Both the position numbers and the translations under genes were made by a program. Below, piece after piece: positions 1 through 21,323 of a stretch of 24,000 bases of DNA. The stretch is from Acidaminococcaceae bacterium (GTDB lineage Bacteria > Bacillota > Negativicutes > Acidaminococcales > Acidaminococcaceae), in assembly GCA_963678395.1 (NCBI GenBank), contig OY782827.1:790506-814505 (forward strand), given 5' to 3'. Position 1 is the first letter of the stretch, and every line of letters begins with the position of its first letter. The notes beneath the pieces were generated by a model. That model saw only the letters and a program-made list of their open reading frames with translations, was not told where the DNA came from and did no database searches.

Positions 1-113
1 GCTTAATATCTGCACAGAGACGGTAGGGAGATAAAAGAGACAGTGGATGATACTTTGAGGAATTGAAAGTTTGTACTTATATCTTGTATCACAGTGGGGA
101 AGGTTGAGAACCA

Positions 114-1025: not shown

Positions 1026-1069
1026 TAATGTAAGTCTAACTTATAAAACTTATAATTTTTATATATTGT

Positions 1070-1121
1070 ACACCTCTTCTTTTTTCCTGCATAATAGTAG
1101 GAAAGGGTAGGGGTGTTTTTA
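1070..1121 (+). terminator. Candidate rho-independent terminator after the LysR gene
   Basis: Imperfect hairpin (acacctcttcttttttcct / aggaaagggtaggggtgt, with G-U pairs and one mismatch) followed by a T5 run. Folded by eye only. Confidence 0.4.
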
Positions 1122-1245
1122 TGCAGTAAAATTAGCCTAAATAAACACTATTGAACTATAAGTTACATTTATGGATGACTAAAGATTTGCCCCATCGGAA
1201 TGTGAAACAGTGCTAGCTTTAATAAAAAAAATAGGGGGAAGTAAA

Positions 1246-2655: not shown

Positions 2656-2670
2656 GGGGAGGAGAACACT

Positions 2671-3840: not shown

Positions 3841-3875
3841 GAGTAAAAGAAGCGAAACTAATACTTGCTGATTAT

Positions 3876-3921
3876 AGACTGTCATACATGTCAAATATAC
3901 ATATGTGGCAGTCTTCGTTTT
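3876..3921 (+). terminator. Candidate rho-independent terminator after the M20 gene
   Basis: About 16-bp stem (agactgtcatacatgt / acatatgtggcagtct, with two G-U pairs and one mismatch), loop caaatat, then tcgtttt. Confidence 0.5.
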
Positions 3922-3954
3922 ACACCAAAGTTGTAAGGTAAAGGAGGAAATTTT

Positions 3955-4813
3955 ATGAAAAAAAAACGAATACTTAAAAGATGTAGTTTATGATGTAGTT
4001 AGCTCTGTTTTGCAGGGTATTGGCATATATTGTTTTATTGCCAATTGTAATATCGCTCCCGGCGGAGCTACAGGTGTGGCAATTTTGGGGAACTATATTA
4101 CAGGCATGCCAATTGGTCTACTAACTTTTCTCGTAAATGTTCCGCTTTTCATTATGTCTTACATGTATTTGGGTAAAGTAAGAACATTTAAAACTTTAAA
4201 AACTGTTTTTATAGGCAGTGTGATCTTAGACCTAGTTATTGCGCCTATATTTCCTCAATATGTGGGTGATAGACTAATGTCGTCGGCTTTTGGCGGTATT
4301 CTTTGTGGCATAGGCATGGCCATGGTTTTCATGAGGGGGTCAACTACAGGTGGTACGGATATAGTTGCTAAATTGTTACAAAGAAAATATCCCCATATGC
4401 AAATCGGGTTTGCGCTAATGCTTATAGATTTAGTTATTATTGCAGCGTCAGCCGTAGTTTTCCATAATGTTGAGTCTGTGCTTTATGGGTTACTTTCTCT
4501 TATTTGTATGACGAAGACTATTGACGCCTTTTTATATGGTATAAATAGAGGGGCAATGGTCACAATTGTTTCGCCTCGTAATGAAGAAATTGCAGAGGAA
4601 ATAATGCGGCAGTTGGATAGAGGCGCTACTTTTTTACAAAGTCGCGGAGCTTATTCTAAGAAAAACTGTGAAACCTTGTTCTGTGTTATAGAAAACAAGC
4701 AGTTTTATTTGGTGAAAGAAATTATTGACAGTATTGATGAAAAGGCTTTTGTTATTGTTTCTGAAACAAAAGAAGTTTACGGGGAAGGTTTTTTGGCAGA
4801 ACGGGTTGAGTAG
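3955..4813 (+). pseudogene. YitT-family membrane protein (DUF2179 C-terminal domain), frameshifted in an A9 tract directly after the start codon
   Basis: A strong RBS (AAAGGAGG) and the ATG at 3955 open a 12-codon frame that stops at 3991-3993. The YitT body (KDVVYDVVSSVLQGIGIYCF... through 4813) lies in the +1 frame. With A8 instead of A9 (3958-3966) the gene reads MKKNEYLKDVVYDVV... intact. The ORF-track piece is 4010-4813. Confidence 0.75.
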
Positions 4814-4882
4814 TAAGCAAAAAAAATAGGCTCCTGCATTGCAATAATCCAAATTATTCTAAATAGATTGGAGGGATACAAA

Positions 4883-5272
4883 GTGCGTTTATGGCATAGT
4901 TCGTTAATCAAATATTTACCGCGTCAGCAATTGTTGGGGCAGCACAGAGAATGTTGTGCTTTGCGTGGAAAAGGTTGGGGAAAGCCCCATGCGACTGTTA
5001 ACTATGTGTTTCAATACAGTCCACTTATGCTCTACCAATTTCATCTGTTGGTAATGCAGGAAATGGAGCAACGTGGTTATCATGCTGATAAAATCTGGCT
5101 AGACTCTAACTATCGTGGAAAATTATTGGGGTATGCAGACTATAATACGGTTGGTAAATTATTTGAAAAATATCCGGAACATGATAAAAAATATTTAGCA
5201 GAGTGCATCGATAATCTTAGAGAAAAAGGTGTTGTTAGAGAAAGTGAAGATGAGCTCTTTCGCAAAATATAA
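4883..5272 (+). CDS. TIGR02328-family protein, pyrimidine-dimer DNA glycosylase (DenV/Pyr_excise)-like
   Basis: GTG at 4883 lies 7 nt after GGAGGG. The sequence RLWHSSLIKYLPRQQLLGQHRECCALRGKGWGKPHATVNYVF matches the conserved N-terminal signature of this family as I recall it. Confidence 0.65.
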   Translation: MRLWHSSLIKYLPRQQLLGQHRECCALRGKGWGKPHATVNYVFQYSPLMLYQFHLLVMQEMEQRGYHADKIWLDSNYRGKLLGYADYNTVGKLFEKYPEHDKKYLAECIDNLREKGVVRESEDELFRKI

Positions 5273-5358
5273 ATAATCTATAGGTGACTTAAATTTTTAA
5301 ATATCTATTAGTATTGCTGAAACCGTTTATTTACATAATTTTTCATAAAAAATAGCAT

Positions 5359-5397
5359 AAAAAAATCCCATTGTTTAATGAAACAATGGGATTTTTT
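5359..5397. terminator. Bidirectional rho-independent terminator between convergent genes
   Basis: Perfect hairpin aaaaaatcccattgttt / aaacaatgggatttttt with loop aatg. The A-run on one side and T-run on the other let it serve both strands. Confidence 0.8.
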
Positions 5398-5480
5398 ATA
5401 CCTAGTTACACACTAAATAAATCATGCTTTTTTAGCTAAAAACAATAAAAATTCATGCTAATTTGCTAATTTATAGGTTG

Positions 5481-6359
5481 TTATTTATTTGGCATTGGGC
5501 GTAAAGACGGTGGAATCCCATTTTCACAGGGGCCTTTCGTCTGACAAAAACCACAGCTGTAACCAACAAGGTTATAATGTTCTTTAATATATTCTGGTGT
5601 GGCATTATGTACATATGCTCTGCATTTAATCTTGTCGTGCCCTTGAGTGCCGCTGGCATTGGCAGGACAACGAGAAATACAAGCGTTGCACTTACCTTTA
5701 GCAAAGTGCAGGCAATATGCATGCATATCAGTATAAGGACGTTCGTCTGGTTTTAATTGGGCTTTTACTACAATAGAGCCCAGGCGCATTGCTTTGCCTA
5801 AAGGTGTGATAAGTGCATCATCCAGACCAAAGGTACCTAGGCTGCAAGCGTAAGCTATATGGCGTTCTGACCATGTTGATGTATAAACACGTTCTTTGCT
5901 GTCAAGACGGATCCACTCTGGGAAACTAACCGGTGCTACGGTCTCATAACCCATGCTGGTTAATGTGTCAGCCATGTATTCACGCAATTTTTCATTAACC
6001 TTTTCACCAAGAATTCGTGAGTGTGACCATCTTTCTGAAGGCATTTCTTTTTCTTGACGCAAAGAGTATTTCGTTTCCTCGGTTTGTGGAAGTACCCAAC
6101 TTACAACGGTGAGTTCATCTAGCTTAGCGGAAGTGTTGGAAAAAGCTTTGCCAAAAATTTCTTCAGGTAGCCAGTGTCCAGGACCACAGGCGTTAGATGC
6201 TTTGAAACGCTTGAAAATAGGGTCATTAGCCGTAGCAAAACCGACTAAAGGCTTACTCCACATTTTTTCTTCACCAAAGTTTTCACCCATGTAATTAAGG
6301 GGAGTTGTAGCTAAAAAATCAATAACCATTTGTCTAATGATTTCATTACTAATTGCCAC
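5481..6359 (-). CDS. 4Fe-4S cluster-binding protein, epoxyqueuosine reductase (QueG) / reductive dehalogenase-like superfamily (putative)
   Basis: 292 aa with a GTG start 7 nt after AAGGAGGTG. The C-terminal half carries two Cys clusters (C-x8-CNACISRCP and C-x22-CGFCQTKGPC) resembling the twin ferredoxin motifs of QueG/RdhA-type proteins. The exact function cannot be assigned from sequence alone. Confidence 0.45.
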   Translation of the reverse strand: MAISNEIIRQMVIDFLATTPLNYMGENFGEEKMWSKPLVGFATANDPIFKRFKASNACGPGHWLPEEIFGKAFSNTSAKLDELTVVSWVLPQTEETKYSLRQEKEMPSERWSHSRILGEKVNEKLREYMADTLTSMGYETVAPVSFPEWIRLDSKERVYTSTWSERHIAYACSLGTFGLDDALITPLGKAMRLGSIVVKAQLKPDERPYTDMHAYCLHFAKGKCNACISRCPANASGTQGHDKIKCRAYVHNATPEYIKEHYNLVGYSCGFCQTKGPCENGIPPSLRPMPNK

Positions 6360-6429
6360 TTAACGACACCTCCTTAGATATTAGTTTCTTTGATAATTAT
6401 ATGTTGGCGGTTAAAAAATAACAAGTGAA

Positions 6430-6489
6430 AACGGTTCTATACTAAATGTTGGAGTGATTTCTCACCCCAACATTTAGTATAGAACCGTT
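6430..6489 (-). terminator. Long perfect hairpin; likely terminator of the FIST-GGDEF transcription unit
   Basis: 23-bp perfect arms (6430-6452 aacggttctatactaaatgttgg; 6467-6489 ccaacatttagtatagaaccgtt) lie 23 nt downstream of the GGDEF stop. On the minus strand the hairpin is followed by T-rich sequence (tttcacttgttatttttt). Confidence 0.6.
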
Positions 6490-6511
6490 AAATTAGAGGG
6501 TATATATTTTT

Positions 6512-7648
6512 TTATGAATTAGTAAAAAAATGAATTTGATTTCTGCCATTGGCTTTAGCCTTATACATTGCACTATCGGCCCACTTAAGGATATTTTCTT
6601 TGCTGGCATCTTGACTACTGAAAAGTACGATGCCGATACTTGCTGTGGAATTATGGTTAACAATCTCAGGTTTCTTACAGACTAATAAATAAGGTTTTGC
6701 TAGAGCAAAACGAATTTTCTCAGCGACTATAGAGGCTTTCTCAGAGGCCGTTTCTTTATTGTTACCTAAATTATTGATAAGGACAACGAATTCATCGCCA
6801 CCAAAACGTGCTACGGTGTCTGTTGCACGCACACAACCTCGTATTCTTTGTGCTGCTTCTATGAGGAGCAAATCGCCAATGTTGTGACCTTGTTTGTCAT
6901 TTAGTGTTTTGAAGTTGTCTAAGTCTAAAAAGAACAATGCGTTATAGCATCCACTACGCTTGCTGGTAGCCATTGCTTGATCCAAACGATCATTTAAAAG
7001 ACGGCGATTAGGAAGATGTGTTAAAGGATCATAAAAGGCAAAAATACGCAGTTTTTCTTCGGCATTTTTACGTTCAGTTATATCTTCGCTTATACCCATA
7101 AGTTTTTCTAGACGTCCATTTTTGCCCAAAATAGGAATAAAACTTGATGCAAATATTTTTGGCGGAGAACCGCTGCCTGTGAATTCGAAGTGACTTGTTT
7201 CCCCTTTATATGCGCAATCAAGCAAATAGTTAATGTGGGGTCTATCATTAGTGCTAACTGCATCTAAATACAAACTGCCTGTTACATCTTTGCCGTTTTC
7301 AAAACCTAGCATGCGAAGACCGGCCGGGTTCATGAAGGTAACTTTACCATCAAGGTCTATTTCGTGGATGCTGACAGGAGAATTTTCTAATAATAAGCGG
7401 GTTTGATATTCTCTCTCTCTCAAAGCACGTGCTATCTTTTCTGTTTCTAGCTTGGCATCTTCAAGTTCTTTTGTGCGCTGACGAACTTGGTCTTCCAGAG
7501 TAATGGCGGTTTGAAACAGGTTGAAATTTGATCCTTGTACACAGGTATTGCGTTCGGCCCGATTCATTAACGATTGAATAATTTTGTTTAAACGCTTAAT
7601 TTCTTCTTGCAGGGCATTTATTATATCTACTTTAGTGTCGTTAGACAT
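6512..7648 (-). CDS. PAS domain-containing diguanylate cyclase (GGDEF)
   Basis: N-terminal coiled-coil, a PAS domain (ENSPVSIHEIDLDGKVTFMNPAGLRMLG...ISEDITERK), and a GGDEF domain with an intact GGDEF motif and an RxxD I-site five residues upstream (RATD-TVARF-GGDEF). I prefer the ATG at 7648 (GAAGG upstream, overlapping the FIST stop as ATGTCTAA) to the ORF-track start at 7678. Confidence 0.85.
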   Translation of the reverse strand: MSNDTKVDIINALQEEIKRLNKIIQSLMNRAERNTCVQGSNFNLFQTAITLEDQVRQRTKELEDAKLETEKIARALREREYQTRLLLENSPVSIHEIDLDGKVTFMNPAGLRMLGFENGKDVTGSLYLDAVSTNDRPHINYLLDCAYKGETSHFEFTGSGSPPKIFASSFIPILGKNGRLEKLMGISEDITERKNAEEKLRIFAFYDPLTHLPNRRLLNDRLDQAMATSKRSGCYNALFFLDLDNFKTLNDKQGHNIGDLLLIEAAQRIRGCVRATDTVARFGGDEFVVLINNLGNNKETASEKASIVAEKIRFALAKPYLLVCKKPEIVNHNSTASIGIVLFSSQDASKENILKWADSAMYKAKANGRNQIHFFTNS

Positions 7649-8807
7649 TTTGACCTTCATTTTCTGCTTTAGGGTCATAACCTATAGCACAGCCGGTGAG
7701 GGTTTGATTTACATGTACACCAAGAAATTGTTCGCCATAGCTACAAAAACCAACGACGTTATTATTTAAGAAAATTTCTTCAACCTGATCTTTTATACCA
7801 TTTCGTGAAATCTCTAGATTGCGCAGGATACAATCACAACCTAAAATAAGTTGTGGAGAGCCAATGTTCTCTTGAATTTTAGTGAAAGCCTGTTTAAGGT
7901 TGTCAACAAGATTTACGCCATGTGCTACTCTAAGAACTATGCCATCTTCAACAGCACAGTAGAAAGTTAAACTCCCGTCAGTGTTTGTTTTCTGGATGGA
8001 ACGAACATAATCGGTACCATCAATCATAACGACAACAGGTGAATCGGCAAAGTGTAGTGGATTAAGCTCACTAATTTTAACACCAACTAATCTTGCATAT
8101 TCTTTGGTTGCTGATAAGCCGTTAAGCTCATTAACAATACGTTTTTCAGGTTGTGCTTCAGTTACAACTAAGCGCTCATCGGTGGGAATAAAGTGCTGTG
8201 TTTTAAATAATTTAAAAGGCAAGGAAGTGTTTAATATAATTAGCACAGCACTATCAGAATGAAACTGACCGTTGCTATAAACTTGGGTTTGGATAAAATT
8301 TTGATCATCACCTGCGGAGCCGCCAAAGAGAGGGATCTTTCCTAAGGCGTATTGTAATGTGAATGCAACGGGTTCTTCCCGCATTGCCAGAGCATCTATT
8401 AACATGAAGGCAAAACAATTATTTGTTTCTATATTGGGAACTCGGCTTTCCAAATCTTGTAAAAGAGCTTGAGTAAAGTTATTACCGGTGGCCACATCAA
8501 AGTCACTTAAAGGGGCTATTCTTTCAGAAACGGCTACAAAGCTATCGGAGGCAAAGCTGACACCGGTTAAGCTGTGAGAACAATAACCACTAGGCCCGAT
8601 TTCACCTGCAGTGGTACAACCAACAACTTGAATACCTGCAAATAGACGATTTATTTCTTCAGCAATAATTGTAAGGTCATATTTACTGGAGGAAAAAAAT
8701 ATTACCAATTCCATGTTTTTTTGCGCAACTGCCGCATAAAATTCTGCTACTGCTATGCGCTCATCCTGTGAACACGACTGCCCTCGTCTAATACTGTTAT
8801 TGTTCAT
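7641..8807 (-). CDS. FIST (FIST_N + FIST_C) sensory domain protein
   Basis: 388 aa with GGAGG 7 nt upstream of the ATG. FIST-typical segments are present (VVGCTTAGEIGPSGY; C-terminal GFCSYGEQF...HVNQTLT). There is no output domain of its own, and it is coupled to the downstream GGDEF gene. Confidence 0.75.
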   Translation of the reverse strand: MNNNSIRRGQSCSQDERIAVAEFYAAVAQKNMELVIFFSSSKYDLTIIAEEINRLFAGIQVVGCTTAGEIGPSGYCSHSLTGVSFASDSFVAVSERIAPLSDFDVATGNNFTQALLQDLESRVPNIETNNCFAFMLIDALAMREEPVAFTLQYALGKIPLFGGSAGDDQNFIQTQVYSNGQFHSDSAVLIILNTSLPFKLFKTQHFIPTDERLVVTEAQPEKRIVNELNGLSATKEYARLVGVKISELNPLHFADSPVVVMIDGTDYVRSIQKTNTDGSLTFYCAVEDGIVLRVAHGVNLVDNLKQAFTKIQENIGSPQLILGCDCILRNLEISRNGIKDQVEEIFLNNNVVGFCSYGEQFLGVHVNQTLTGCAIGYDPKAENEGQNV

Positions 8808-8934
8808 GCTTATGCCTCCATCTTATATAGCTAGAATATATTAAAATTCAATGCTGTGACTATAGTAATCACAACATATATTAAATCATATAATTTATAT
8901 AATTAGCAATTCTGTTTCTACAAAGGAATCAGTT

Positions 8935-10236
8935 TTATATTTCCGGTTTATGGGTATCCTGTGCTAAAAGAAAGTCAATAATGTTTAAAAATTTAATTTT
9001 TTCATCACAAGTATCATAATATTCATCCATAGAAACTATGATTTTTTCGTAGTCAGAAGGTATTGCTTTTAATGTGGCAAATTTTTTGTCTATAGTTTCG
9101 TTGCATTTTAAAGTTGGAATAAATTGCAAACACTTTCTTACTCCTTGACCGACGGCATAAAAGTCAATTTCTTGTGTATCATATTTACCGCAGAAGACTT
9201 TATAGCCGCGGTGTAATAATTCAAAATAAATTGCTGTTTCCACAATTTTTGTATTATCAGGATCTGCAAAGGAGAGCAACATATTACGAATGCCAGAATC
9301 TGATAAATAGTATTTGGTCAAAAGAGGTAATTGAACATTGTTTTTAATATCAAAATAGGAGATTTTATATAAAATATAGGCTTTTTCTAGCAATAATATA
9401 TATTCAGAAATAATATCTTTATTATAGCTATCATTTTGATAATGGGAGGAAAGGCAGCAACTAACGTCGGCACGGGAAATAGCCTTTCCCGTGTTTCGTG
9501 CTACATAGCGTACAATTTTTTTTAAGGCTTGAATATCGCTAATGTTTTTATCTGTTGCTAGCAAAACATTTTTAATTATAATGCTATTGTACACACCTTC
9601 TAAAAAACCTTGGATTATAGCATTTTCCTGTGGCAAAAAGGGGATCGTAGGCAAGCCACCGAATTTAAGATAGTTTTTGTAATCAAGCTTGAGGTTTTCT
9701 TTCTGATCCATAAAGCTACGAGGCATTCTACGCAAAAAGTTATATTGCCTTGTATCTGTTTGACGTTTCCATAGTATGAATTGTAAATACTCATGAAATG
9801 ATAAAGGCAAGACATTAATAGTCACACAATTATCTTCAAATAATGGTGCAATACTAGATACGGCGGGGAAAACGTTTGAACTAGTAAGATAAATGTCAGC
9901 AACGCCTTCCGAATACCAACATTCAATAGCTTTTTCCCAATCTTTAACCAACTGTATTTCATCAAGAAAAAGATAACTTTTTTGCTTAACAGGTAATTTA
10001 TTTTTAATTTGCGTGCATAACTCCTGATAATTATTAATATTATCAAATTCGCTTAGTTCTAGGTTCATAGTGATAATATTGGTTGAAGGCACGCCCTCAC
10101 CTAATAAGTAATTTTTAAAAATGTCAAGAATAGTAGACTTACCGCATCGACGCATACCGGTTATTATTTTTATACGGGGTTGCTCGCGGTATGCAATTAG
10201 ATTATCTAAATATTGTTGTCTAATAATCATTTTCAT
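8935..10236 (-). CDS. ATP-binding protein, AAA_14 ATPase with DUF4143 C-terminal domain
   Basis: Walker A motif GMRRCGKST near the N-terminus and Walker B-like LFLDEIQ. Length and layout are typical of the AAA_14/DUF4143 family. The second ATG, at 10230, has better SD spacing (GGAGG plus 9 nt) than the first at 10236. Confidence 0.7.
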   Translation of the reverse strand: MKMIIRQQYLDNLIAYREQPRIKIITGMRRCGKSTILDIFKNYLLGEGVPSTNIITMNLELSEFDNINNYQELCTQIKNKLPVKQKSYLFLDEIQLVKDWEKAIECWYSEGVADIYLTSSNVFPAVSSIAPLFEDNCVTINVLPLSFHEYLQFILWKRQTDTRQYNFLRRMPRSFMDQKENLKLDYKNYLKFGGLPTIPFLPQENAIIQGFLEGVYNSIIIKNVLLATDKNISDIQALKKIVRYVARNTGKAISRADVSCCLSSHYQNDSYNKDIISEYILLLEKAYILYKISYFDIKNNVQLPLLTKYYLSDSGIRNMLLSFADPDNTKIVETAIYFELLHRGYKVFCGKYDTQEIDFYAVGQGVRKCLQFIPTLKCNETIDKKFATLKAIPSDYEKIIVSMDEYYDTCDEKIKFLNIIDFLLAQDTHKPEI

Positions 10237-10342
10237 GCGCCTCCACTAAATTATAAAATTTATAGCAAAGTTTGGTAGGAATGTTAAAAAAAACAATTTA
10301 AGCTTACGCAGTTTACTCATAGAGCTTAAATATTGATTTCAG

Positions 10343-11626
10343 TCAAAAATATCTTAAAAAAATATAAATATTGCAGATAATCATAGATAATAGCATCAAA
10401 GGAAAAGCTATTAAGAAAAATTTTACAAAAGAAATTGGATTGCCTCTTTGCGCGGCCATAGATGCAATAACTACATTGGCGCTTGCTCCAATAAGGGTTC
10501 CGAAACCACCAAGGCAGGCGCCTAGTGATAATGACCAGTAAATTGGCGCTAAATTACTAATTCCCATAGTTCCCATTTCTTTGATTAGGGGAAGTAAAGT
10601 AGCTACAAAGGGAATATTGTCGATAAAAGATGATGCTAATGCGCTTAACCAAAGAATAAGTATTGAGGTGAACTCAAGATTACCATGGGTCAAACTGGTT
10701 GTGGCATGTGCTAATATTTTGATTGTTCCTGTTTGTATTAAGGCCCCAACTAAAATGAAAAGACCTATAAAAAAGAAAATGGAAAGCCATTCAATGCGAC
10801 TAAAAACAGTTGTAAGGACTGCTTCATTGGTGGGAATGGTAATAAGCATTAGCAAACTGGCGCCTGTTAAAGCAGCAGTTGCTGTCTGCATATTTAATAC
10901 GGAATGGAACATGAAAAGCAAGATGGTAAAGGTTAAGACAAAAAGGCATTTTTTTAATAGAGCCATGTCTTTTATTTCACTTTTTTCATTTAAACGCATA
11001 ACATTTTCTTGCAACTCTGGAAGTGTGTGCAGTTTTTTGTGGTAAATAAGATATATAATAAGCATATTTATGACGAAGACTATTATGCATATAGGTGTCA
11101 AATTAGTTATAAAATCAATAAAGTCAAATCCTGCCGCGCTGCTTATCATTACATTAGGCGGATCACCGATTAAGGTTGCAGCACCACCTATATTGGCGGC
11201 AATAATTTGAGCTATTAAGAAAGGTTTTGCATCAATTTTCAGTTGCGAAGTAATGCTAAAGGTTACAGGAACCATTAATAAAACCGTTGTTACATTATCA
11301 AGAAAGGCGGAGAATACAGCCGTCAAAGTTGCCAAGGCAAAAAGTAGTGCCGCAGGTCTTGCGTTAGCCTTTTTTGCTGCCCAAAGGGCCATAAAATTGA
11401 AGAGACCTGTTTCACTTGTAATATTGACGATAATAATCATCCCAATTAGAAGACCTACGGTATTAAAATCAATACAAGCTATAGCTTGTGTTTGGTTCAA
11501 AATTCCCAGTACTATCAACAAAGAAGCACCGGCAAGAGCAACAACTGTACGATGAATTTTTTCCGAAATAATAAGAACATAGGAAAATGTAAAAATAATC
11601 ATTGCCACAACTGCACTGTTTGTCAT
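10343..11626 (-). CDS. ArsB/NhaD-superfamily (citrate-transporter-like) anion/ion permease
   Basis: 427 aa, polytopic, with AGGAGG 8 nt upstream. Shows the two-repeat transporter architecture with the GDPPN-type hairpin motif (LIGDPPNVMI) seen in ArsB/NhaD/SLC13-like permeases. Confidence 0.7.
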   Translation of the reverse strand: MTNSAVVAMIIFTFSYVLIISEKIHRTVVALAGASLLIVLGILNQTQAIACIDFNTVGLLIGMIIIVNITSETGLFNFMALWAAKKANARPAALLFALATLTAVFSAFLDNVTTVLLMVPVTFSITSQLKIDAKPFLIAQIIAANIGGAATLIGDPPNVMISSAAGFDFIDFITNLTPICIIVFVINMLIIYLIYHKKLHTLPELQENVMRLNEKSEIKDMALLKKCLFVLTFTILLFMFHSVLNMQTATAALTGASLLMLITIPTNEAVLTTVFSRIEWLSIFFFIGLFILVGALIQTGTIKILAHATTSLTHGNLEFTSILILWLSALASSFIDNIPFVATLLPLIKEMGTMGISNLAPIYWSLSLGACLGGFGTLIGASANVVIASMAAQRGNPISFVKFFLIAFPLMLLSMIICNIYIFLRYF

Positions 11627-11851
11627 TCAACTCGCCTCCTACTATAACCGCCTTTGAAAAAATAGTTGGGCGTATTATTTCCTGATATAGTGAAGTGTTG
11701 CACTTATAAGTCTAGTTATAATAAAAAAAGCAAACGTTTAATATGAAATATTTACTCTATTATACATTTTCCTATGCGCATATGTATATATATATAGCAT
11801 AATATAAGATTACATAATATAATAATTTGGCTTGTAACTATATTATATGTA

Positions 11852-11880
11852 ATTGAGTTCAGAAAATTGAAGTGTTATAA
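11852..11880 (+). promoter_or_regulatory. Candidate sigma-A promoter for the EncFtn-like gene
   Basis: TTGAGT (11852-11857), a 17-nt spacer, then TATAAT (11875-11880) preceded by an extended -10 TG (gTGtTATAAT), about 37 nt upstream of the ATG at 11917. Confidence 0.5.
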
Positions 11881-11916
11881 TCAAGGCAGGTAAATTTTTG
11901 AATGGAGGGTGATAAT

Positions 11917-12258
11917 ATGCCAGCTTTTGCAAACCCATTTCAGGGAAACGTCCAAAGAAAGTTAACAAAGGAAGAGCTAATTCAAGCCGTTAGACTTGAT
12001 ATTGCAGGAGAACTTGAGGCTATATATCTATATGATGCTCATGTTCAAGCGACTGATGATGAAAGAGCTAAAAAGGTTATTTCTGATATTCGCGATGAGG
12101 AAAAGTCTCATGTAGGTGAATTGATGACTTTACTTAGAATTCTTGATCCGCATGAAGCAGAACTTTTCATGGCGGGGGAAAAAGAAGTGCAAGAAATGCT
12201 TGCAGAGTTGGAAAAGTCAGCTAAAATTAAGACAATAGCTGAAATAGGAAGCAACTAA
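11917..12258 (+). CDS. Encapsulated-ferritin (EncFtn)-like ferritin-family protein
   Basis: 113 aa from the ATG at 11917 (GGAGGG 7 nt upstream). GELEAIYLYDAHV...IRDEEKSHVGELMTLL matches the E-x2-E...Y...EEKxH ferroxidase-centre pattern of EncFtn proteins (compare R. rubrum EELEAVDWYDQRV...RDEEKEHAAMTLEWL, from memory). Confidence 0.65.
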   Translation: MPAFANPFQGNVQRKLTKEELIQAVRLDIAGELEAIYLYDAHVQATDDERAKKVISDIRDEEKSHVGELMTLLRILDPHEAELFMAGEKEVQEMLAELEKSAKIKTIAEIGSN

Positions 12259-12259
12259 T

Positions 12260-12391
12260 ATGGATTTAGTTATTGGACAAGATATGGCAGTTGCCTATCT
12301 TGAACAGGCAGAACTTAACCATAGCTTTATAATTCTTGAGACAGCGTTCCCACGTATTAAGAGGGAACGGGCAATAGTTGTTTTTGAGTGA
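12260..12391 (+). pseudogene. Remnant of a family-1 encapsulin shell gene (C-terminal ~43 codons only)
   Basis: A short ORF below the track cutoff, MDLVIGQDMAVAYLEQAELNHSFIILETAFPRIKRERAIVVFE, aligns by eye to the extreme C-terminus of encapsulins (T. maritima ...[45 protein letters not shown]). It starts 1 nt after the EncFtn stop (TAAtATG) and is followed by a terminator. Confidence 0.55.
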
Positions 12392-12430
12392 TGTAGGCTA
12401 GAAAATAAAATATAGAAAAGCTTGAAATAC

Positions 12431-12488
12431 AACCTCCGAATTGGACAGTGAAAAGTAAATTCATTGTTTACTATTGGAGGTTTTTGTT
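12431..12488 (+). terminator. Candidate rho-independent terminator after the EncFtn / encapsulin-remnant unit
   Basis: Outer stem aacctcc / ggaggtt with inner pairing (agtaaa / tttact), followed by tttttgttt. Confidence 0.5.
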
Positions 12489-12807
12489 TACGCCAAAAAC
12501 CAGACTAGCTGTCACTGTTATTGGCTAATATGGGGTGAATATTTTCCAAGGAACTCTTGTACCATTGTGAGAGAAGTTTTTTTTGTTCCAATTTGTGATA
12601 AAATAAATTTATAAGAATTAGTTCGTTAATAAGAACAACATAAGTAATGAGTGTTTTTTGTACATGAATTATAAAGTAGATTAAATTACCAATTGAGTTG
12701 TCTCATATTTTTAATCGTAAAATTTATTCTCACAGCCTTGTCAAAGGGTGGAACCGAAACTGAAATGATGTTGGGTATGCGGAACTGTGGATGAATGGAG
12801 GCGAAAA

Positions 12808-15800
12808 ATGTTTGGGAGTGGGTTGGAAGAGCTTAAACAATTTATAACAAGTGCTTATTTTTGCATAGGAGCACTAATTACGGTTTGTTTTTTAACTTTT
12901 TTGTTTTTTCATTACCGGGTTTTGGGTGTCAAAAAAAAATTGCTTTCCGTGCGAACGTTGAAAAATAGCGAGATGCTCGGAATAGAAGAGATGCAGCAGA
13001 AGATGCTGCATCTCTCTGAGTTGCAAAAAAATGTTAAATGGGGAAATTATAACTTTCTTATACGCTATCGTAATAGAGTTTTATATGATAGTTTTAATGA
13101 AATTCGAGCTAAACTTTCTGAAGTTAAAAAAGAAGTCATAAGTTTGATACCAGCATCACGTTGGCTTGTTGACAATTTTCAGATGATATATAGAGAGCTG
13201 GAAAAAGTAAGCGATACTAGAATAGGGGATAGACCATTACCACTATTGCAAGAGGGCGAATTTCGCGGCTACCCTAGAATTTATGTGGTAGCCAGAGAAA
13301 TGTTAGAGCTTACGGGAGGCCGGTTAAGTGAAGAAAACATATTAACGTTACTAAAGAGCTACCAAAAAGGAACCATGCTTGCGGCAGCAGAGTTATGGGC
13401 TCTTCCGGAAATGCTTAGCCATAGCCTTTTAGAGAATATTATTGTTGTAGCAGAAGATATACTTTGGGTAACAAGTATAAAAACTCAAGCGGATGTTTTT
13501 GTTAAAGAAAGTTTTTTGCAAAATCCAGATAACCCTAGCATAGATATGCTCTTAAAAAAACTAGAAATTAAAGAAGCGGCAAAGGTTTATTTTCATTCAC
13601 AGGTTGTTTTTTTGTTGAAAAACATGTCTTTTGATGAAGTATCAATACAAAAATATTTAGAATACCATTGTACGCATAATTGTAAATTATTACGACCATC
13701 AAATTTATTTCAACAAGAAGGCAAGTTTGAGTCCTGTCTTGAAGCAAAAATACGTGAATTGCTTATAAGTTTGCGGGGAATCCATGAAATAGATGGAGAA
13801 GAACTTTTTGAGCAGCTATCTATATTAGAGGCTATATTACGACAAGATCCGGCTGGTGTATATGCGAAAATGGATGTGGAAAGCAGAGGGAATTATCGAG
13901 CTGTTATAGAAAAACTCATAGTAAAAAGAAATTTAGACGAAGGCATGGCAGCAAGAACTTGTTTGGAACTTGCACGGATAAATAGTTCCAATCTACGGTG
14001 TGCTAATCATGTAGGAACATACTTGGTAGGTCCTGGATATAATATTTTCAAAGCTAAAGTATTAAATAGAAACATACCGAAAAACAAAAAATACAAACAA
14101 AATGTTAAGGGAACAGCCTATTTCTGTTTAGTGGCAGCAATCTTCACATTGTTAATTTGTTTTTTATCGTATATTACACACAGGGTGCAAATACTCGGTG
14201 GTAGCTATAGCTACGCGCTTTTTTTCTTTTCAGTCGCATTTTTACTTTTTGGCGGAGCTATTGATTTGTCCAATAGAATATTTGCTAAGCTTGTTACTGT
14301 TGGTGCTTTACCAGCTATGGATTTCCAAAGCACTATTCCTAATAGTGCTAGGACATTTGTAGTGATGCCAATAATTGTTTTTACGAAAGAACAAGCAGCG
14401 GAAAGTATTGCTAGACTTCTTAAACAATATTTGGGTAACCAACAAGAGAATCTTTACTTTGCGCTATTAGTTGATTTTGCTGATGCTGAGGCTATGCATT
14501 TGCCCTCTGATAAAACGATAGAAGAAGAATTGACTAGTGGCATAAATAAAATTAACGCGCTTTATCCTTCCGATTATAGAAGGTTTTCTCTTTTTATCCG
14601 TGAGCGAAAATGGAATGCTGCGGAAAACTGCTATATGGGATGGGAGCGTAAAAGAGGAAAACTTGAAGAGTTTAATAGTCTGCTTAGTGGTGATAAGGGT
14701 ACTAGTTATGTAATAAAATTGTGCGATGAAAGAATTATAAATACATTTAAATATGTTATTACACTAGATTCTGATTCTGATTTATTAAAAAATATGGCGG
14801 CAAAATTAGTTGGTATAATCCATCATCCGCTTAATAGTCCGGAAATTGATTCGGATAGAAGCAAGGTTTCAGCAGGGTATGGTATAATTCAACCTGCCGT
14901 AAGCAATCATATTTATAAAGGCAGCTTATTTTCACAAGTGTTTAGTGGCAAGCAAGGCCTTGACCCTTATGCTCGTTCCATATTCGATATATATCAAGAT
15001 GTATTTGGAGAGGGTATATTTGTGGGAAAGGGTATTTATGTAATAAGTGCTTTTCATAATATTCTACACCAAAAATTTCCTGAAAACAGAGTGTTGAGTC
15101 ATGATTTATTGGAGAGTTGTTTTGTAAAAACCGCTTTTTCTTGTCAAGCTAGGATAATGGAAGATTATCCTAAAAATCTTCTTTCTTATGCTAAGCGAGA
15201 ACATCGTTGGATTAGAGGCGATTGGCAGTTATTACCTTGGCTTTTCAAACATAGCCAGTTGTCGAAATTATCAAGGTGGAAAATACTGGGAAATATTCTT
15301 AGCAGTCTAACGCCCTTGTTTAAATTATTTGTAATAATACTTAGTCTGGCTTTATTGCCGAAGTTTTATTATGTTGGTCTTATAATTGCACTTTTTCCTG
15401 ATGTATTTAACTTGTTATTTTTAATTTTTGAAACCATAATATATAAGTTGCGTAGCCCCAAGACAACGCTGGTCTATAAAGATTTTTTCAGAGAAATAAA
15501 AATTCGTTGTCAACGTAGTTTTTTTGAGTTGCTTTTTATGCCCTATATGGTCTTTGTTATCTCAGATGCTATATTACGTACAGTATACCGCCTATGTATA
15601 AGTAAGCAACATTTGCTTAATTGGAATACGTCAGCAATAACAGAAAAACAAACTAATAAGACAAAAGAGGCATATTATCGTAGTATGCATATTTCTGTTA
15701 TTATGGCTGTAGGTATTATCGTAGTATTACTACTTTTTGTTAAACAAAGTATTGCAAAAACATTTATTTTCATAACATTAGCCATTCTTTGGGGAAGTTC

Positions 15801-17772
15801 TTATCTTTGGGCTTATAATATTGGACAGGAAAAAGAGCGCTCTACACAAGAAGTCTTAGGTAGTGATGAAAAAGAGCTGCGCAAAATAGCTCGTAAGACA
15901 TGGCAATTTTTTAAAGATTATGCAACAAGTGATAATAATTGGTTGTGCCCGGATAATTATCAAAAAGAACCCAAAGAAAAGGTTACAGATAAAACATCTC
16001 CTACTAATATTGGCTTGCAAATGTTAGCAGTAGTGTCAGCTAGAGATTTGGGGTTTGAAACATTATCTGCCACTGTTTGTACTATAGAGAAAATGTTGGA
16101 TTCTATTGCTAGACTGCCAAAATGGAGGGGACATCTTTTTAACTGGTATAATATAAAGACGTTCGAGGTATTAGGACCACAATATATATCTACGGTAGAT
16201 AGTGGGAACTTTTTAGGGCATTTATTAACCGTAAAAAATGGACTAAAAGCTAGTGTGGTAAAGCCGTTGTTTTCTAAAACGCAAATAGACGGCTTACGAG
16301 AGCTTGGCGAGCTTTGTCAAGAAAAGCTAGAGCTGCAGGATAGCTATGCAACAGTGGAAGAGTTTGCCGCTACTATAAAAAACGCACAAAAAATTTTAGA
16401 GAAAAAGCAAGTAAATTCTACTTCTCAAGATATTTTCGCTGGTGAATTGCTAAAAAGTATGGATGCGTTACAGGAAGAGTTAGATATATTGAACCTTAAG
16501 GGTTATTCTTGTACAAATTGCCCTACTCTTAAAGAACGGGCAGAAACCGGGAATAAGTATGCACAGAATTTAGCGAAAAAAATAGCTGAAATTACTAAAA
16601 CCATAGATAAAATTGTGGCAGAGGCTGATTTTAGATTTTTGTACAACAAGAAACGCGCTTTATTTCATATTGGTTATCACGTTTCTTCCAAAAGTCTTGA
16701 TGAAGGCTGTTACGATTTGATTGCCTCTGAATGTCTTTTAACCAGCGTTTTGAATATTGCCCAAAATACGGTGCCGCTGAAGCATTGGTCAAAACTGGGT
16801 AGACCATTGACGTTGATAAAGGGATCACCTTGTTTTGTTTCCTGGAGTGGCACAATGTTTGAGTACCGTATGCCAAGTTTAGTGTTACAAGAATATGAAG
16901 GGTCGGTATTTTCAGAAACAGCTAGAGCTGTTGTGGCAGAAAATATTGCTTTTGCAAAAAAAAGAATGCTGCCTTGTTGGGGCATATCAGAATCGCAGTA
17001 TTATCAATTCGATCAAGATGGCAACTATCAGTACAGAGCATTTGGAGTACATAGTTTGCGGCTACAAACCTCATTAGGTAATCAAAATCTTGTGTTTGCA
17101 CCTTATGCAACTATGTTAGCACTTAGTTATGCAGACAAAGAGTGTATTGCCAATCTGAAAAATTTAGCCCAACTTGGTTGTGTTGGTACTTATGGTTATT
17201 ATGAAGCCATAGATTTTAATGGGCCAAACCCTGTTACGACAAAACCTTTTTCCATTGTAAAATCATTTATGGCACATCATCAAGGCATGATTTTAGTAGC
17301 AATCAATAATTATCTAAATAATGGGATTATGCAAAAAAGATTCCATAGTGAGCCTATGATACAAGCTGTTGCATCCTTGCTTGAGGAAAAGCGAGGGTCA
17401 TATTTTGTTAATATTCCTAAGGAAGGTTACAATATCAACTTCAAGGAAATAGAATTAAAACACGAAATACCAGAGAGCAGATACATTAATAAAGTGGCTC
17501 CAGAGATGCCGGTAGCGCATTTTCTTTCCAACGACAATTATTCTATTTTGGTAACGTCTGATGGTGATGGCTTTAGTAAATATAAGGATATGATGCTCTA
17601 CAGATGGAGACCAAATATTTATGACTGCACAGGGAATTACATTTTCATTAAGGATGTTAAGACAGGCAGCGTTTGGAGTAACACCTATAATCCTACAAAA
17701 AAGAACCGGACGAATACCATGTTATATTTTCTCTTCATCAGGCAGAATTCAAACGTCGAGATGGCGATATAA
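12808..17772 (+). CDS. cgs: Cyclic beta-1,2-glucan synthase (Cgs/ChvB/NdvB-type), segment 1: TM region + GT84 glycosyltransferase + cyclisation domain + start of GH94-like region; ends by frameshift
   Basis: ATG at 12808 lies 6 nt after GGAGG (the ORF track starts at GTG 12787). Multi-TM N-terminus; GT84-like core with ITLDSDSD (14767-14781 encode DSDSD) and HRWIRGDWQ (15202-15228); more TM helices; then ARKTWQFFKDY...WLCPDNYQ...TSPTNIGLQML, typical of the Cgs cyclisation/glucoamylase-like domain. The 0-frame runs only 23 codons past the A_AAA_AAG site at 17697-17703. Confidence 0.85.
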   Translation: MFGSGLEELKQFITSAYFCIGALITVCFLTFLFFHYRVLGVKKKLLSVRTLKNSEMLGIEEMQQKMLHLSELQKNVKWGNYNFLIRYRNRVLYDSFNEIRAKLSEVKKEVISLIPASRWLVDNFQMIYRELEKVSDTRIGDRPLPLLQEGEFRGYPRIYVVAREMLELTGGRLSEENILTLLKSYQKGTMLAAAELWALPEMLSHSLLENIIVVAEDILWVTSIKTQADVFVKESFLQNPDNPSIDMLLKKLEIKEAAKVYFHSQVVFLLKNMSFDEVSIQKYLEYHCTHNCKLLRPSNLFQQEGKFESCLEAKIRELLISLRGIHEIDGEELFEQLSILEAILRQDPAGVYAKMDVESRGNYRAVIEKLIVKRNLDEGMAARTCLELARINSSNLRCANHVGTYLVGPGYNIFKAKVLNRNIPKNKKYKQNVKGTAYFCLVAAIFTLLICFLSYITHRVQILGGSYSYALFFFSVAFLLFGGAIDLSNRIFAKLVTVGALPAMDFQSTIPNSARTFVVMPIIVFTKEQAAESIARLLKQYLGNQQENLYFALLVDFADAEAMHLPSDKTIEEELTSGINKINALYPSDYRRFSLFIRERKWNAAENCYMGWERKRGKLEEFNSLLSGDKGTSYVIKLCDERIINTFKYVITLDSDSDLLKNMAAKLVGIIHHPLNSPEIDSDRSKVSAGYGIIQPAVSNHIYKGSLFSQVFSGKQGLDPYARSIFDIYQDVFGEGIFVGKGIYVISAFHNILHQKFPENRVLSHDLLESCFVKTAFSCQARIMEDYPKNLLSYAKREHRWIRGDWQLLPWLFKHSQLSKLSRWKILGNILSSLTPLFKLFVIILSLALLPKFYYVGLIIALFPDVFNLLFLIFETIIYKLRSPKTTLVYKDFFREIKIRCQRSFFELLFMPYMVFVISDAILRTVYRLCISKQHLLNWNTSAITEKQTNKTKEAYYRSMHISVIMAVGIIVVLLLFVKQSIAKTFIFITLAILWGSSYLWAYNIGQEKERSTQEVLGSDEKELRKIARKTWQFFKDYATSDNNWLCPDNYQKEPKEKVTDKTSPTNIGLQMLAVVSARDLGFETLSATVCTIEKMLDSIARLPKWRGHLFNWYNIKTFEVLGPQYISTVDSGNFLGHLLTVKNGLKASVVKPLFSKTQIDGLRELGELCQEKLELQDSYATVEEFAATIKNAQKILEKKQVNSTSQDIFAGELLKSMDALQEELDILNLKGYSCTNCPTLKERAETGNKYAQNLAKKIAEITKTIDKIVAEADFRFLYNKKRALFHIGYHVSSKSLDEGCYDLIASECLLTSVLNIAQNTVPLKHWSKLGRPLTLIKGSPCFVSWSGTMFEYRMPSLVLQEYEGSVFSETARAVVAENIAFAKKRMLPCWGISESQYYQFDQDGNYQYRAFGVHSLRLQTSLGNQNLVFAPYATMLALSYADKECIANLKNLAQLGCVGTYGYYEAIDFNGPNPVTTKPFSIVKSFMAHHQGMILVAINNYLNNGIMQKRFHSEPMIQAVASLLEEKRGSYFVNIPKEGYNINFKEIELKHEIPESRYINKVAPEMPVAHFLSNDNYSILVTSDGDGFSKYKDMMLYRWRPNIYDCTGNYIFIKDVKTGSVWSNTYNPTKKNRTNTMLYFLFIRQNSNVEMAI

Positions 17773-18851
17773 CTTCTCACACGGTAGTAAGTCTTTCGCC
17801 GGATTATGATTTGGAAATAAGAAAAGTTACTTTGACAAATCATAGTGATAAGCCTAAAATCATAGAATTAACAAGCTACTTGGAGATAGTTGCCAATAGC
17901 TTTGCAGCCGAACTTGCTCATCCGGCTTTTAACAAACTTTTCATAGAAAACAGTTTCTTAGAAGAAAGCAATATGGTTCTGGCTAAAAGGCGAGGCAGCC
18001 TTAGTACGCCAAAACCGTATTTACTACATATGGTTAAGGCAAATACGGATTTTTTGCAGAAAATAGAATATGAAAACGATCGTTTAAGATTTATTGGACG
18101 TAATAATACGGTGCAAAACCCTATAGCAGTTATAGATAGTATGCCATTTTCTAATAATACTATTTTCTCTGATGATCCTATTATAAGCATGCGTGCGAGA
18201 GTTGTATTACCAGCATTCGGCAAAGTTAGTGTTTACTTTATTACAGGGGTTTGTGCAAATATTGTTGCAGCAAAAAGCTTAGGTAAAGAATTAAATGAGG
18301 TGGCTTGGATTGAGGAGATGAATGAAAAGTTCAGATTGCAAAGTATTCTTGAACTTAAGTATCTAGCTATGACAACGTCACAGCTTAATGCCTGCCAGGA
18401 CTTAGTCGCACCGATATTTTATCCTGCAAGGGCTTATCGTGGACCCTTAGAAAATATGCGACGTAATTGTAAAAATCAAAGAGACTTATGGAGATTTGGT
18501 ATTTCAGGAGACAATCCTATACTGCTATTTAGGGTTACGTCTAGTGAAGCCTTGGGAATAATGCAAGATGTATTTAAAGTTTATGAATATTTGCGTATAA
18601 ATGAAGTAAAGGTGGATTTAGTAGTGCTTAGTGAGGGTAAGCATGGTTATATGACCGAACTCAATAATTTATTGCAGGAAATGACTACTTCCCTTAAGAT
18701 ATTTGATGAAAATAGTGATAAGCATAATATATTTATACTAGATGCCTACCAATTAACCCCAGCAGAAGTTGATTTACTTCTTACAGTAGCCAAGGTAGTC
18801 TTTACGGAAGATACAGGGATTTATTTCCGTAAGATAAAGGAAGAACGGTAA
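17703..18851 (+). CDS. cgs: Cyclic beta-1,2-glucan synthase, segment 2 (-1 frame continuation; first GH94 N-terminal-like domain region)
   Basis: The -1 frame from 17703 reads EPDEYHVIFSLHQAEFKRRDGDITSHTVVSLSPDYDLEIRKVTLTNHSDKP..., continuing the domain begun in segment 1. The ORF-track TTG at 17811 has no RBS and lies inside this domain, so it is not a credible independent start. The segment ends at TAA 18849-18851. Confidence 0.75.
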   Translation, partial: EPDEYHVIFSLHQAEFKRRDGDITSHTVVSLSPDYDLEIRKVTLTNHSDKPKIIELTSYLEIVANSFAAELAHPAFNKLFIENSFLEESNMVLAKRRGSLSTPKPYLLHMVKANTDFLQKIEYENDRLRFIGRNNTVQNPIAVIDSMPFSNNTIFSDDPIISMRARVVLPAFGKVSVYFITGVCANIVAAKSLGKELNEVAWIEEMNEKFRLQSILELKYLAMTTSQLNACQDLVAPIFYPARAYRGPLENMRRNCKNQRDLWRFGISGDNPILLFRVTSSEALGIMQDVFKVYEYLRINEVKVDLVVLSEGKHGYMTELNNLLQEMTTSLKIFDENSDKHNIFILDAYQLTPAEVDLLLTVAKVVFTEDTGIYFRKIKEER

Positions 18852-18878
18852 TTATAACGTGGCTTTTCTAGAAAGAAG

Positions 18879-21323
18879 GTGCCGTATTTGAAAAAAAGGA
18901 AGATAAATTTGTCTGAAAAGGAAACCAATGGTAGAAAATATGAATTTTTCAATGGTTTTGGTGGCTTTGTAGCAAATGGACGCGAGTATGAAATATTTTT
19001 GCAAGATGATAATAGGCCACCGGCACCGTGGGTTAATGTTATAGCTAATGAAAATTTTGGCTTCTTTATTTCTGAAAGAGGAGCAGGACCAACTTGGGCT
19101 GGTAATAGCCACGAAAATAAAATAACGCCTTGGTCTAATGATCCTGTAAGTGATATTGCTTCCGAAGCCATATACATTAAAGAAGAAGGAAAGGAAAAGT
19201 TATTAACGCCTACGCCCATAGGGAGAAAAGGGCATGGGGACTATTTAGTAAGACATGGATTTGGCTATTCAATTTTTTGCCATGAAGAAGCATTAATAGA
19301 ACAAGAGCTTAAGGTTTTCACACCACTAGCAGAGCCTATGAAAATTTGGATATTGAAACTTAAAAATAACTCTAATATTGAAAAAAATCTAAGTAGTGCT
19401 TATTATGTGGAGTGGGTCCTTGGAGTTAACAGGGAAGATACGAGTCCTTATATTGTATCTTCTTATAATAATGAACATGAATATTTAGCAGCAAGAAATA
19501 TCTATAGTGATGCTTTAAGCAAGCAAAGTTGTTTTATTTTCTCTAGTGAGCGCATAGTTTCCTACACTGGTGACAGAAAAGAATTTTTGGGTAAAAAAGG
19601 TTCCATAGATAAACCGGAAGGGTTGAAAGGCAAGTTGTCTTGTACGACTGGTGTAGGCTATGATTCTTGTGGCGTTATCCAGGTCGCTGTAAAACTATTG
19701 CCTCGAGAAACAAAAACTATTGTTTTTGGTCTGGGGCAAAGCAGTTCTAGTACTGATATTAGCCAGTTGCAGAAAAAATATCAAAGTTTAATCAATATAA
19801 ACAGTGAACTGCATAAAGTTCAGGATTACTGGCATGAATTATTGGGAGTAGTGCAAGTTAAAACTACTGATAGAGCTATGGACATACTTATTAATGGTTG
19901 GTTGTTATATCAAACTATAAGCTGTAGATTAAATGCTCGAACGGCTTTTTATCAATGCGGTGGGGCCTATGGATTTAGAGATCAGTTGCAGGATGTATTA
20001 GCTCTTTTGGAGGTTGCACCGACAGTTACACGCCGTCAAATTTTGTTGGCGTGCAGCAGGCAGTTTGAAGAAGGAGATGTACAACATTGGTGGCATCCAC
20101 CATTTGGCTTGGGTGTTCGGACTAGGATAACTGATGATTTATTATGGCTTCCCTATGTTACAAGTGCTTATATAAAAAGTACTGGTGACTATGCACTATT
20201 AAAAGAAAAAGTAAATTATATCAAGGGGGATTTATTGGAAAATGGCCAAAATGAATCTATGTTTACGCCAAAAATTTCAGAGGTCAGCGGTAGCGTTTAC
20301 GAGCATTGCAAAAAAGCCATACTTCATACTCGTTTTGGTGAACATGGGCTGCCTCTTATAGGAACAGGCGATTGGAATGATGGCATGGATAAAGTTGGTG
20401 TAGGAGGAAAAGGAGAAAGCGTTTGGCTAGGTTGGTTTTTTGTTGCCGTGTTAAAAAATATTATACCTATTTGTTATCACGAAAATGACAGTGAATTTGC
20501 TAATGCCCAGGAAAAGTTAAGAAAAGAAGTTTTAAAAAATATAGAAGAGTTTGCTTGGGATGGTAATTGGTATATAAGAGCTTTTGATGATGAAGGAGAA
20601 AAACTAGGCTCAAGTGTAGGCGATGAATGTAAGATTGATTCTATAAGCCAATCTTGGAGTGTACTATCGGAAGGAGCGGAGAAAAAAAGAGCTGTGGAGG
20701 CAATTAATTCATCAGAGAAATATCTTGTACAAGAGAAAGAGGGACTTTCTTTGCTCTTGTTCCCACCGTTTAATAAGACATTGAAAAATCCTGGTTATAT
20801 TAAAAACTATTATCCTGGAATCAGAGAAAACGGGGGACAATATTCTCATGCAGCTGTATGGTTGGCCATGGCTTGCACCAAGGTTGGAGATTATAGCCGT
20901 GGATACAAACTTTTCACTATGCTTAACCCAATTCATATTACGTTGAAATACAATGATGCTCTTCGCTACAAAAGAGAACCCTATATAATGACAGCGGATA
21001 TTTCCTCTGCAGTAGGCAATGCCGGTATAGGGGGGTGGAGTTGGTATACTGGTTCGGCTAGCTGGATGTATCAAGGACTTGTTAATACCTTTTTGGGGAT
21101 TAAAAAAGAAGGTAAGTATCTAACTGTTTTACCTGGTGCGCCTGCTATATTTGGCGAATACAAGGTATGGTATAAATATGGGCATTCTTCCTATGAGATA
21201 CAAGTAAGTCAAAGAAAAAGCAACGATTATATTGTTAGAAATGTCAGAATTGATGGAGTTGTTTTAGAGGGTAATAAAATAGAATTGCTAGATGATGGCA
21301 AGCGTCACATTGTTACAGTTTGA
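18879..21323 (+). CDS. GH94 phosphorylase-like module (C-terminal part of Cgs, or a free-standing GH94 enzyme)
   Basis: 814 aa in the same frame as segment 2 but separated from it by TAA-TTA-TAA. It starts with the GH94 N-terminal domain signature (YEFFNGFGGFVANGREYEI...PAPWVNVIAN) and has the catalytic-barrel motifs GDWND (20367-20381) and GGQYSHAAVW. AGAAGGTG (18874-18881) could serve the TTG at 18888; the GTG at 18879 lies inside this SD-like element. Confidence 0.8.
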   Translation: MPYLKKRKINLSEKETNGRKYEFFNGFGGFVANGREYEIFLQDDNRPPAPWVNVIANENFGFFISERGAGPTWAGNSHENKITPWSNDPVSDIASEAIYIKEEGKEKLLTPTPIGRKGHGDYLVRHGFGYSIFCHEEALIEQELKVFTPLAEPMKIWILKLKNNSNIEKNLSSAYYVEWVLGVNREDTSPYIVSSYNNEHEYLAARNIYSDALSKQSCFIFSSERIVSYTGDRKEFLGKKGSIDKPEGLKGKLSCTTGVGYDSCGVIQVAVKLLPRETKTIVFGLGQSSSSTDISQLQKKYQSLININSELHKVQDYWHELLGVVQVKTTDRAMDILINGWLLYQTISCRLNARTAFYQCGGAYGFRDQLQDVLALLEVAPTVTRRQILLACSRQFEEGDVQHWWHPPFGLGVRTRITDDLLWLPYVTSAYIKSTGDYALLKEKVNYIKGDLLENGQNESMFTPKISEVSGSVYEHCKKAILHTRFGEHGLPLIGTGDWNDGMDKVGVGGKGESVWLGWFFVAVLKNIIPICYHENDSEFANAQEKLRKEVLKNIEEFAWDGNWYIRAFDDEGEKLGSSVGDECKIDSISQSWSVLSEGAEKKRAVEAINSSEKYLVQEKEGLSLLLFPPFNKTLKNPGYIKNYYPGIRENGGQYSHAAVWLAMACTKVGDYSRGYKLFTMLNPIHITLKYNDALRYKREPYIMTADISSAVGNAGIGGWSWYTGSASWMYQGLVNTFLGIKKEGKYLTVLPGAPAIFGEYKVWYKYGHSSYEIQVSQRKSNDYIVRNVRIDGVVLEGNKIELLDDGKRHIVTV

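Follow-up and report, generated by a model that had tools for sequence, protein, structure and literature searches.

The closest described systems are the family-1 EncFtn-encapsulin operons, represented by Rhodospirillum rubrum Rru_A0973/A0974 (PDB 5DA5), Myxococcus xanthus EncA with EncB/EncC (PDB 7S8T) and Thermotoga maritima, in which a cargo gene is followed by a shell gene and then by a terminator. When separated from its shell, EncFtn is an active ferroxidase that is unable to store iron (PMC5012862); Fe(II) is oxidised and not stored, and a precipitate is formed (PMC5012862, PMC11202242). Additionally, He et al. 2016 described a "Non-EncFtn" group without an encapsulin (PMC5012862), and a 2024 review described "s-FLP" proteins without a targeting peptide, amongst which PDB 3K6C forms the usual decamer (PMC11202242). 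The locus analysed here has the cargo fold, the ferroxidase motifs and the gene order of the family-1 operons, and in relatives of the same genus the two-gene unit is complete, including a TIGSL-type peptide, but the locus itself is without the targeting peptide, without most of the shell codons and without any family-1 shell in the genome. In these respects its product is like the Non-EncFtn/s-FLP proteins (PDB 3K6C, Nitrosomonas europaea NE0167), with a length in the range of about 100-113 aa, no tag and no shell. It differs from them in that it groups with the tagged EncFtn of its own genus and still has shell DNA attached; it is a fresh case and does not belong to an old, separate clade.

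The window, i.e., the whole stretch of 24,000 nucleotides that was analysed, belongs to a complete, 2.16-Mb, one-contig Acidaminococcaceae genome. Among named relatives, the MAG "Acidaminococcaceae bacterium STF2_16" is the nearest, and Phascolarctobacterium faecium is one of the members of the same family. The source organism is a gut or digester-type anaerobe. EncFtn is a single-copy gene in this genome, read as an ORF of 113 aa on the + strand (11917-12258) that ends in a TAA stop. The first-pass annotation had recognised this ORF as an EncFtn by its GELEAIYLY...DEEKSH pattern, and this was borne out by a score of 156.3 bits against NCBIfam NF058679 (EncB_fam; cut-off 90), with the motifs aligned and model positions 1-103 of 117 covered, and of 30.9 bits against Pfam PF22277 (EncFtn-like; cut-off 27). 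The two models, together with alignment to the same-genus genome G001, delimit a native part of codons 1-109 (11917-12243, + strand) that contains both motifs and is 88% identical to G001 at the nucleotide level. The protein can be aligned to PDB 5N5E, 7S8T and 3K6C; GELEAIYLY and DEEKSH align with the same motifs in 5N5E and 7S8T, and they are identical in 160 homologues. A ferroxidase centre was defined by a Glu in helix 1, an ExxH in helix 2 and a conserved Tyr, all of which are present in the window EncFtn.

Upstream of the gene, a GGAGG Shine-Dalgarno sequence was read directly at 11904-11908 (+ strand), with the ATG at 11917 lying 8 nt further on, and the same GGAGG is found in G001. Its spacing identifies 11917 as the EncFtn start, in place of the ATG at 11902, which falls inside the ribosome-binding site. 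A promoter had also been proposed before the cargo gene, in agreement with the promoter-like site TTGAGT-17-TGtTATAAT at 11853-11881 (+ strand). This candidate, which was recognised by consensus match only, scored 10/12 and has an extended -10 (TG before the -10), and its sequence is kept in the same-genus locus.

One base after the EncFtn stop (TAAtATG), an ORF of 43 codons, MDLVIGQDMAVAYLEQAELNHSFIILETAFPRIKRERAIVVFE, occupies 12260-12391 on the + strand, with an SD-like word, AGGAAG, 8 nt 5' of its ATG. The claim that this ORF corresponds to the extreme C-terminus of a family-1 shell was upheld by a match to NF041155 (encap_f1) confined to positions 220-261 of 261 (E 1.3e-11, 44.4 bits; cut-off 100), by a match to PF04454 (Linocin_M18) at positions 224-251 of 253 (21.7 bits; cut-off 24.3) and by 86-89% amino acid identity to the shell C-termini of the same genus. 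Such matches are far beyond chance. Since both scores are under the cut-offs, and since C-terminal positions only are matched in what is at full length an HK97-type protein of about 260-290 aa, the peptide is a fragment of a family-1 shell member and not itself a member. The models and the amino acid identity place the whole shell remnant at 12247-12391 (+ strand), equivalent to ancestral codons of about 224-271 and the TGA stop. The natural stop and the terminator are retained, as had been claimed. The operon terminator, at 12431-12490 (+ strand), consists of a bipartite hairpin and then UUUUUGUUU; it was identified by folding (centroid -21.8 kcal/mol, z -3.46), and the hairpin and U-run are conserved in G001. 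A simple terminator scan missed this hairpin due to its long loop.

The first-pass annotation had pointed to related genomes as the place to look for an unbroken version of the locus, and both other species of the genus (two genomes) indeed have an intact EncFtn-shell pair at the syntenic site. The pair consists of a 122-aa EncFtn and a 271-aa shell, separated by a spacer of 22 nt in which a GGGGGA ribosome-binding site lies, and the EncFtn C-termini read ...SENNVSTIGSLIE (...STIGSLIE) or ...TADTIGSLMK. By blastn (to L009), window positions 11616-12244 align with the G001 locus through EncFtn codon 109, and the alignment resumes at 12247-13400 from shell codon 224 on into the downstream gene, with 86-88% nucleotide identity in the flanks on both sides. 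At the joint between them (12245-12246), the dinucleotide TA stands in place of 733 ancestral bases, as found both by blastn and by contigs of sequencing runs placed on the G001 locus. The left breakpoint is inside EncFtn, after codon 109, and the right breakpoint is at shell codon 223/224, so that the deletion took 13 codons from the 3' end of EncFtn, and with them the targeting peptide and the stop, then the spacer together with the ribosome-binding site of the shell, and finally shell codons 1 (the start) to about 223 of 271. The deletion of roughly 220 shell codons that had been deduced from the window is therefore real, but the accompanying idea of a loss internal to the shell gene that kept its start context is not, as the left breakpoint lies in the cargo gene and the stub ATG at 12260 is not the shell start but Met229, a conserved residue inside the shell (EATN-M-DLVIGQD). 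The loss may have been a single event with a 2-nt TA filler, a model under which no clear microhomology was seen at the breakpoints, or it may have consisted of two nearby deletions of 38 nt and 695 nt. The latter fits equally well, with GGA common at the second joint, ATAGGA of the old stop region kept and no filler needed. On either model, we consider it nearly certain that the locus is a deletion relic.

The cargo gene, which had been described as intact, was also affected by this loss. Its 13 C-terminal residues, SENNVSTIGSLIE, are gone, and four residues (IGSN) have been added from out-of-frame shell DNA, encoded by codons 110-113 (ATA GGA AGC AAC, then TAA; 12244-12258, + strand) whose bases read (C)PEATN in the shell frame. 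The protein now ends in ...AEIGSN and contains no targeting peptide of the T-[VI]-G-[SGN]-L type. The new tail E-I-G-S-N does have I-G-S in common with the deleted native tag T-I-G-S-L; with no shell present to bind it, this likeness would best be taken as chance.

Searches of the whole genome with PF04454 and NF041155, even at E 10, returned the stub only and no second family-1 shell. For family-1 shells, this excludes the possibility, raised in the first-pass annotation, that the cargo uses a shell encoded elsewhere in this complete genome, and the cargo is also without a loading tag. It follows from the sequence that no shell can form and that the cargo cannot be loaded. A single classical ferritin (PF00210, 119 bits) is encoded in the genome, at G000:C1:1531408-1531812, about 730 kb away, and no rubrerythrin was found in it. 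In a set of 41 related genomes, the NF058679 match of each EncFtn that passes the cut-off extends to position 117, so that the tag region is there, and a shell adjoins it, the sole exception being the EncFtn of the window's genome.

Altogether, these observations give a simple history. The ancestral operon ran from a promoter through the gene for a 122-aa EncFtn, which carried the TIGSL targeting peptide at its C-terminus, and the gene for a 271-aa shell to a terminator, and the 733-base loss, from EncFtn codon 110 to shell codon 223, took the middle of the operon. The remaining 113-aa product would most likely still be expressed from the conserved promoter and form a free cytosolic ferroxidase ring in which Fe(II) is oxidised and not stored, as the promoter, the ribosome-binding site and all ferroxidase-centre residues are kept and as its length and architecture match those of Non-EncFtn/s-FLP proteins. 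Bulk iron storage would then be left to the single classical ferritin. The shell stub, which is too small for an HK97-type fold, would be a non-functional, inert leftover, although it could be translated by coupling through the TAAtATG arrangement and the AGGAAG word. We hold with good confidence to the overall reading that a family-1 operon lost its middle and that the tagless EncFtn most likely persists as a free ferroxidase; on the narrower point of whether EncFtn is still functional on its own, the balance of the analysis tips only slightly towards function.

The main competing explanation is that the whole locus is dead and that the truncated EncFtn is a useless leftover not yet hit by disabling mutations. 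This is a real possibility, though not the one that we would favour. It draws support from the inability of EncFtn to store iron without a shell (PMC5012862) and from the condition of the neighbouring genes. Private frameshifts in the LysR-like, YitT-like and cgs genes, within the same 24 kb, were confirmed by run contigs, and since the contigs of two runs match window positions 1-20000 without an indel, polishing errors can be discounted and these homopolymer frameshifts are real in the strain. That several genes have been freshly inactivated within 24 kb points to recent decay or to relaxed selection, and EncFtn may be the next to go. The promoter-like site, the ribosome-binding site, the reading frame and the catalytic motifs, all of them intact, argue against a dead locus.

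Substitution counts do not separate these two explanations. Pairwise dN/dS was 0.048 for EncFtn and 0.12 for the stub, values that reflect mostly the time before the deletion. When changes were polarised with outgroups, the window branch had, in EncFtn, 5 synonymous changes against 2 non-synonymous ones and, in the stub, 3 against 4; these are small counts, too few to demonstrate constraint, and they fit a kept gene or a very recent loss alike. One window-specific EncFtn replacement, I50R, is at a mostly hydrophobic position. As regards the neighbouring genes themselves, in the downstream cyclic beta-1,2-glucan synthase-like gene (12787-21323) the GH94 supersandwich domain is split, with ORFs at 12787-17772 and 17811-18851, and further break sites in the window are located at 317-323, 753-758 and 3958-3966.

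A wider survey covered 160 EncFtn loci of other organisms, collected from genomes and metagenomes. A full shell was nearby at 132 of the 160 loci, and most of the others end at contig ends. Ten loci, all in Bacillota, have EncFtn genes of 98-105 aa with no TVGSL-type tag and no shell within 0.9-3 kb. All ten genes stop shortly after the same helix, the last of the core, and their short tails differ from one gene to the next; shell absence went with tag absence in all ten of the complete cases. In the four whole genomes available for tagless genes (L042, L058, L061, L065), no family-1 shell was found. The ferroxidase motifs are kept in 10/10 of the tagless genes, and the core is about 80% conserved, with some genes on long branches. 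On a weakly resolved tree of 100 columns, the ten genes are scattered amongst tag-bearing genes and require 8 state changes. The persistence of tagless, shell-less EncFtn in at least 8 separate lineages argues that selection keeps the free form elsewhere, and it speaks against a dead locus in the window. In favour of a dead locus, three near-identical stand-alone EncFtn genes differ by non-synonymous changes only (2 per pair, 0 synonymous), in a clade too close for the comparison to say more (dS = 0). Searches at E 0.1 for shell fragments beside the other stand-alone EncFtn genes found none, and the window alone keeps one.

With respect to the Non-EncFtn/s-FLP class, the window has an EncFtn-like core without a tag in a genome without an encapsulin. 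It does not belong to a phylogenetic group apart from encapsulated EncFtn, as was described for the class (He et al. 2016); on the weakly resolved tree, its EncFtn clusters with its tag-bearing counterparts in the same genus, with 97% identity over the core. The window most likely captures the Non-EncFtn/s-FLP transition soon after the event. More generally, the co-absence of tag and shell in ten of ten cases, the unrelated tails past the same helix and the roughly 8 separate places in the tree suggest that the tagless class keeps arising, through deletions that begin in the disordered EncFtn linker, extend into the shell gene or all the way across it and remove tag and shell in one step, with the free ferroxidase then kept by selection. 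We offer this generalisation tentatively and think it rather unlikely as it stands. If it were true, anaerobes that also possess a classical ferritin would repeatedly have been able to do without the shell, and there would be a physiological role specific to free EncFtn.

The locus is no new system; it is the ordinary decay of a well-known two-gene system, seen unusually cleanly. Its value lies in a cleanly mapped event and in a possible snapshot of the tagless EncFtn class arising, a class that has already been described and for whose repeated origin the deletion offers a simple mechanism. It also constitutes a mapped natural experiment, in which sister species have the same EncFtn, in one case with tag and shell and in the other without them, and this pairing would be useful for asking what a free EncFtn ring does, a question left open in the Non-EncFtn/s-FLP literature. 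For annotation, the appropriate label for the 43-codon ORF is shell pseudogene fragment, and the name encapsulin cargo should be avoided for the 113-aa protein.

A second explanation would have the stub retained as a functional small protein, or the EIGSN tail acting as a substitute tag for another compartment. The ORF is open, with the SD-like AGGAAG 8 nt upstream and a stop-start coupling layout, and the tail has the I-G-S of the native tag. The stub, however, represents only positions 220-261 of a 261-position HK97-type fold, it has 4 lineage-specific amino acid changes in 43 codons compared with 2 in the intact sister, and the other stand-alone EncFtn loci are without such a stub. As for the tail, its IGS comes from out-of-frame reading, most simply by chance, and the genome has no family-1 shell to bind a tag. 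We regard this explanation as very improbable in both of its forms.

The weakest explanation, that an assembly or sequencing error or a minority variant hides an intact operon in the organism, is scarcely credible in view of the sequencing data, even though these come from one strain and one study. Two public sequencing runs of the same organism and the same study, possibly from the same culture, were examined, and a search of sequencing runs returned only these two. Contigs built independently from each run (about 11x and about 293x word depth) span 11500-12900, and therefore the joint, with zero differences from the window. When both runs were placed on the intact G001 locus at 80% likeness, exactly 733 bases were skipped, with TA between the two sides, and no contig of either run covered the intact allele or the shell body of the relative (zero depth), with the caveat that Logan contigs can drop rare variants. 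No repeats that might have collapsed in assembly flank the joint. An apparent contig joint from 10989 to 13918 was set aside, as it consisted of AT-rich matches of about 20 nt to an unrelated contig of high depth.

The deletion could be private to the strain or could have arisen in culture, as a single strain of the species is available. An exact search of metagenome contigs with the 27-nt joint gave no match, and an exact-protein look-up of the 113-aa product gave no record. The nearest metagenome EncFtn, 93% identical, is from the sister species. Among RNA sequencing runs, a search for the locus gave no match.

Within the family, no more than 6 of 24 other sampled genomes have an EncFtn-shell operon, and on the weakly resolved 100-column tree the EncFtn of this genus is far from that of Phascolarctobacterium, a member of the same family (L015-L017, L052-L054). 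Such patchiness is in keeping with repeated gain and loss. Two MAGs with a genus-type operon bear the labels Acholeplasmataceae and Lachnospiraceae, probably through errors of binning or naming. One of the same-genus genomes has, besides the intact operon, a second, partial EncFtn-like copy (G002:C117:13393-13614; model positions 1-73) in an 86-aa frame on a different contig. In the window, an Nramp-family metal transporter (22453-23715) and a CitMHS-family transporter (10343-11626) are encoded near EncFtn.

The survey also contained other irregular loci. In a metagenome relative (L149 and L150, 2899-4210), the EncFtn keeps its TVGSL tag, but the shell ORF is cut short after about residue 125 (...FFGNKKK*). 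Immediately downstream is an ORF of 307 aa whose N-terminus is GIY-YIG-like, and the contig ends before any further shell sequence. Here too the shell may have been disrupted, perhaps by a mobile endonuclease gene. The reverse case was observed in a Phascolarctobacterium-like human-gut contig (L154, 2501-2570), which has a full shell and an EncFtn ORF that stops after 22 codons. Finally, two loci with an intact ETVGSL tag have no shell within about 2.4 kb (L103, 272-1171) or about 0.9 kb (L130), and the shell may be elsewhere or the architecture may be different; in L103, an open frame runs for about 175 codons 5' of the EncFtn core.
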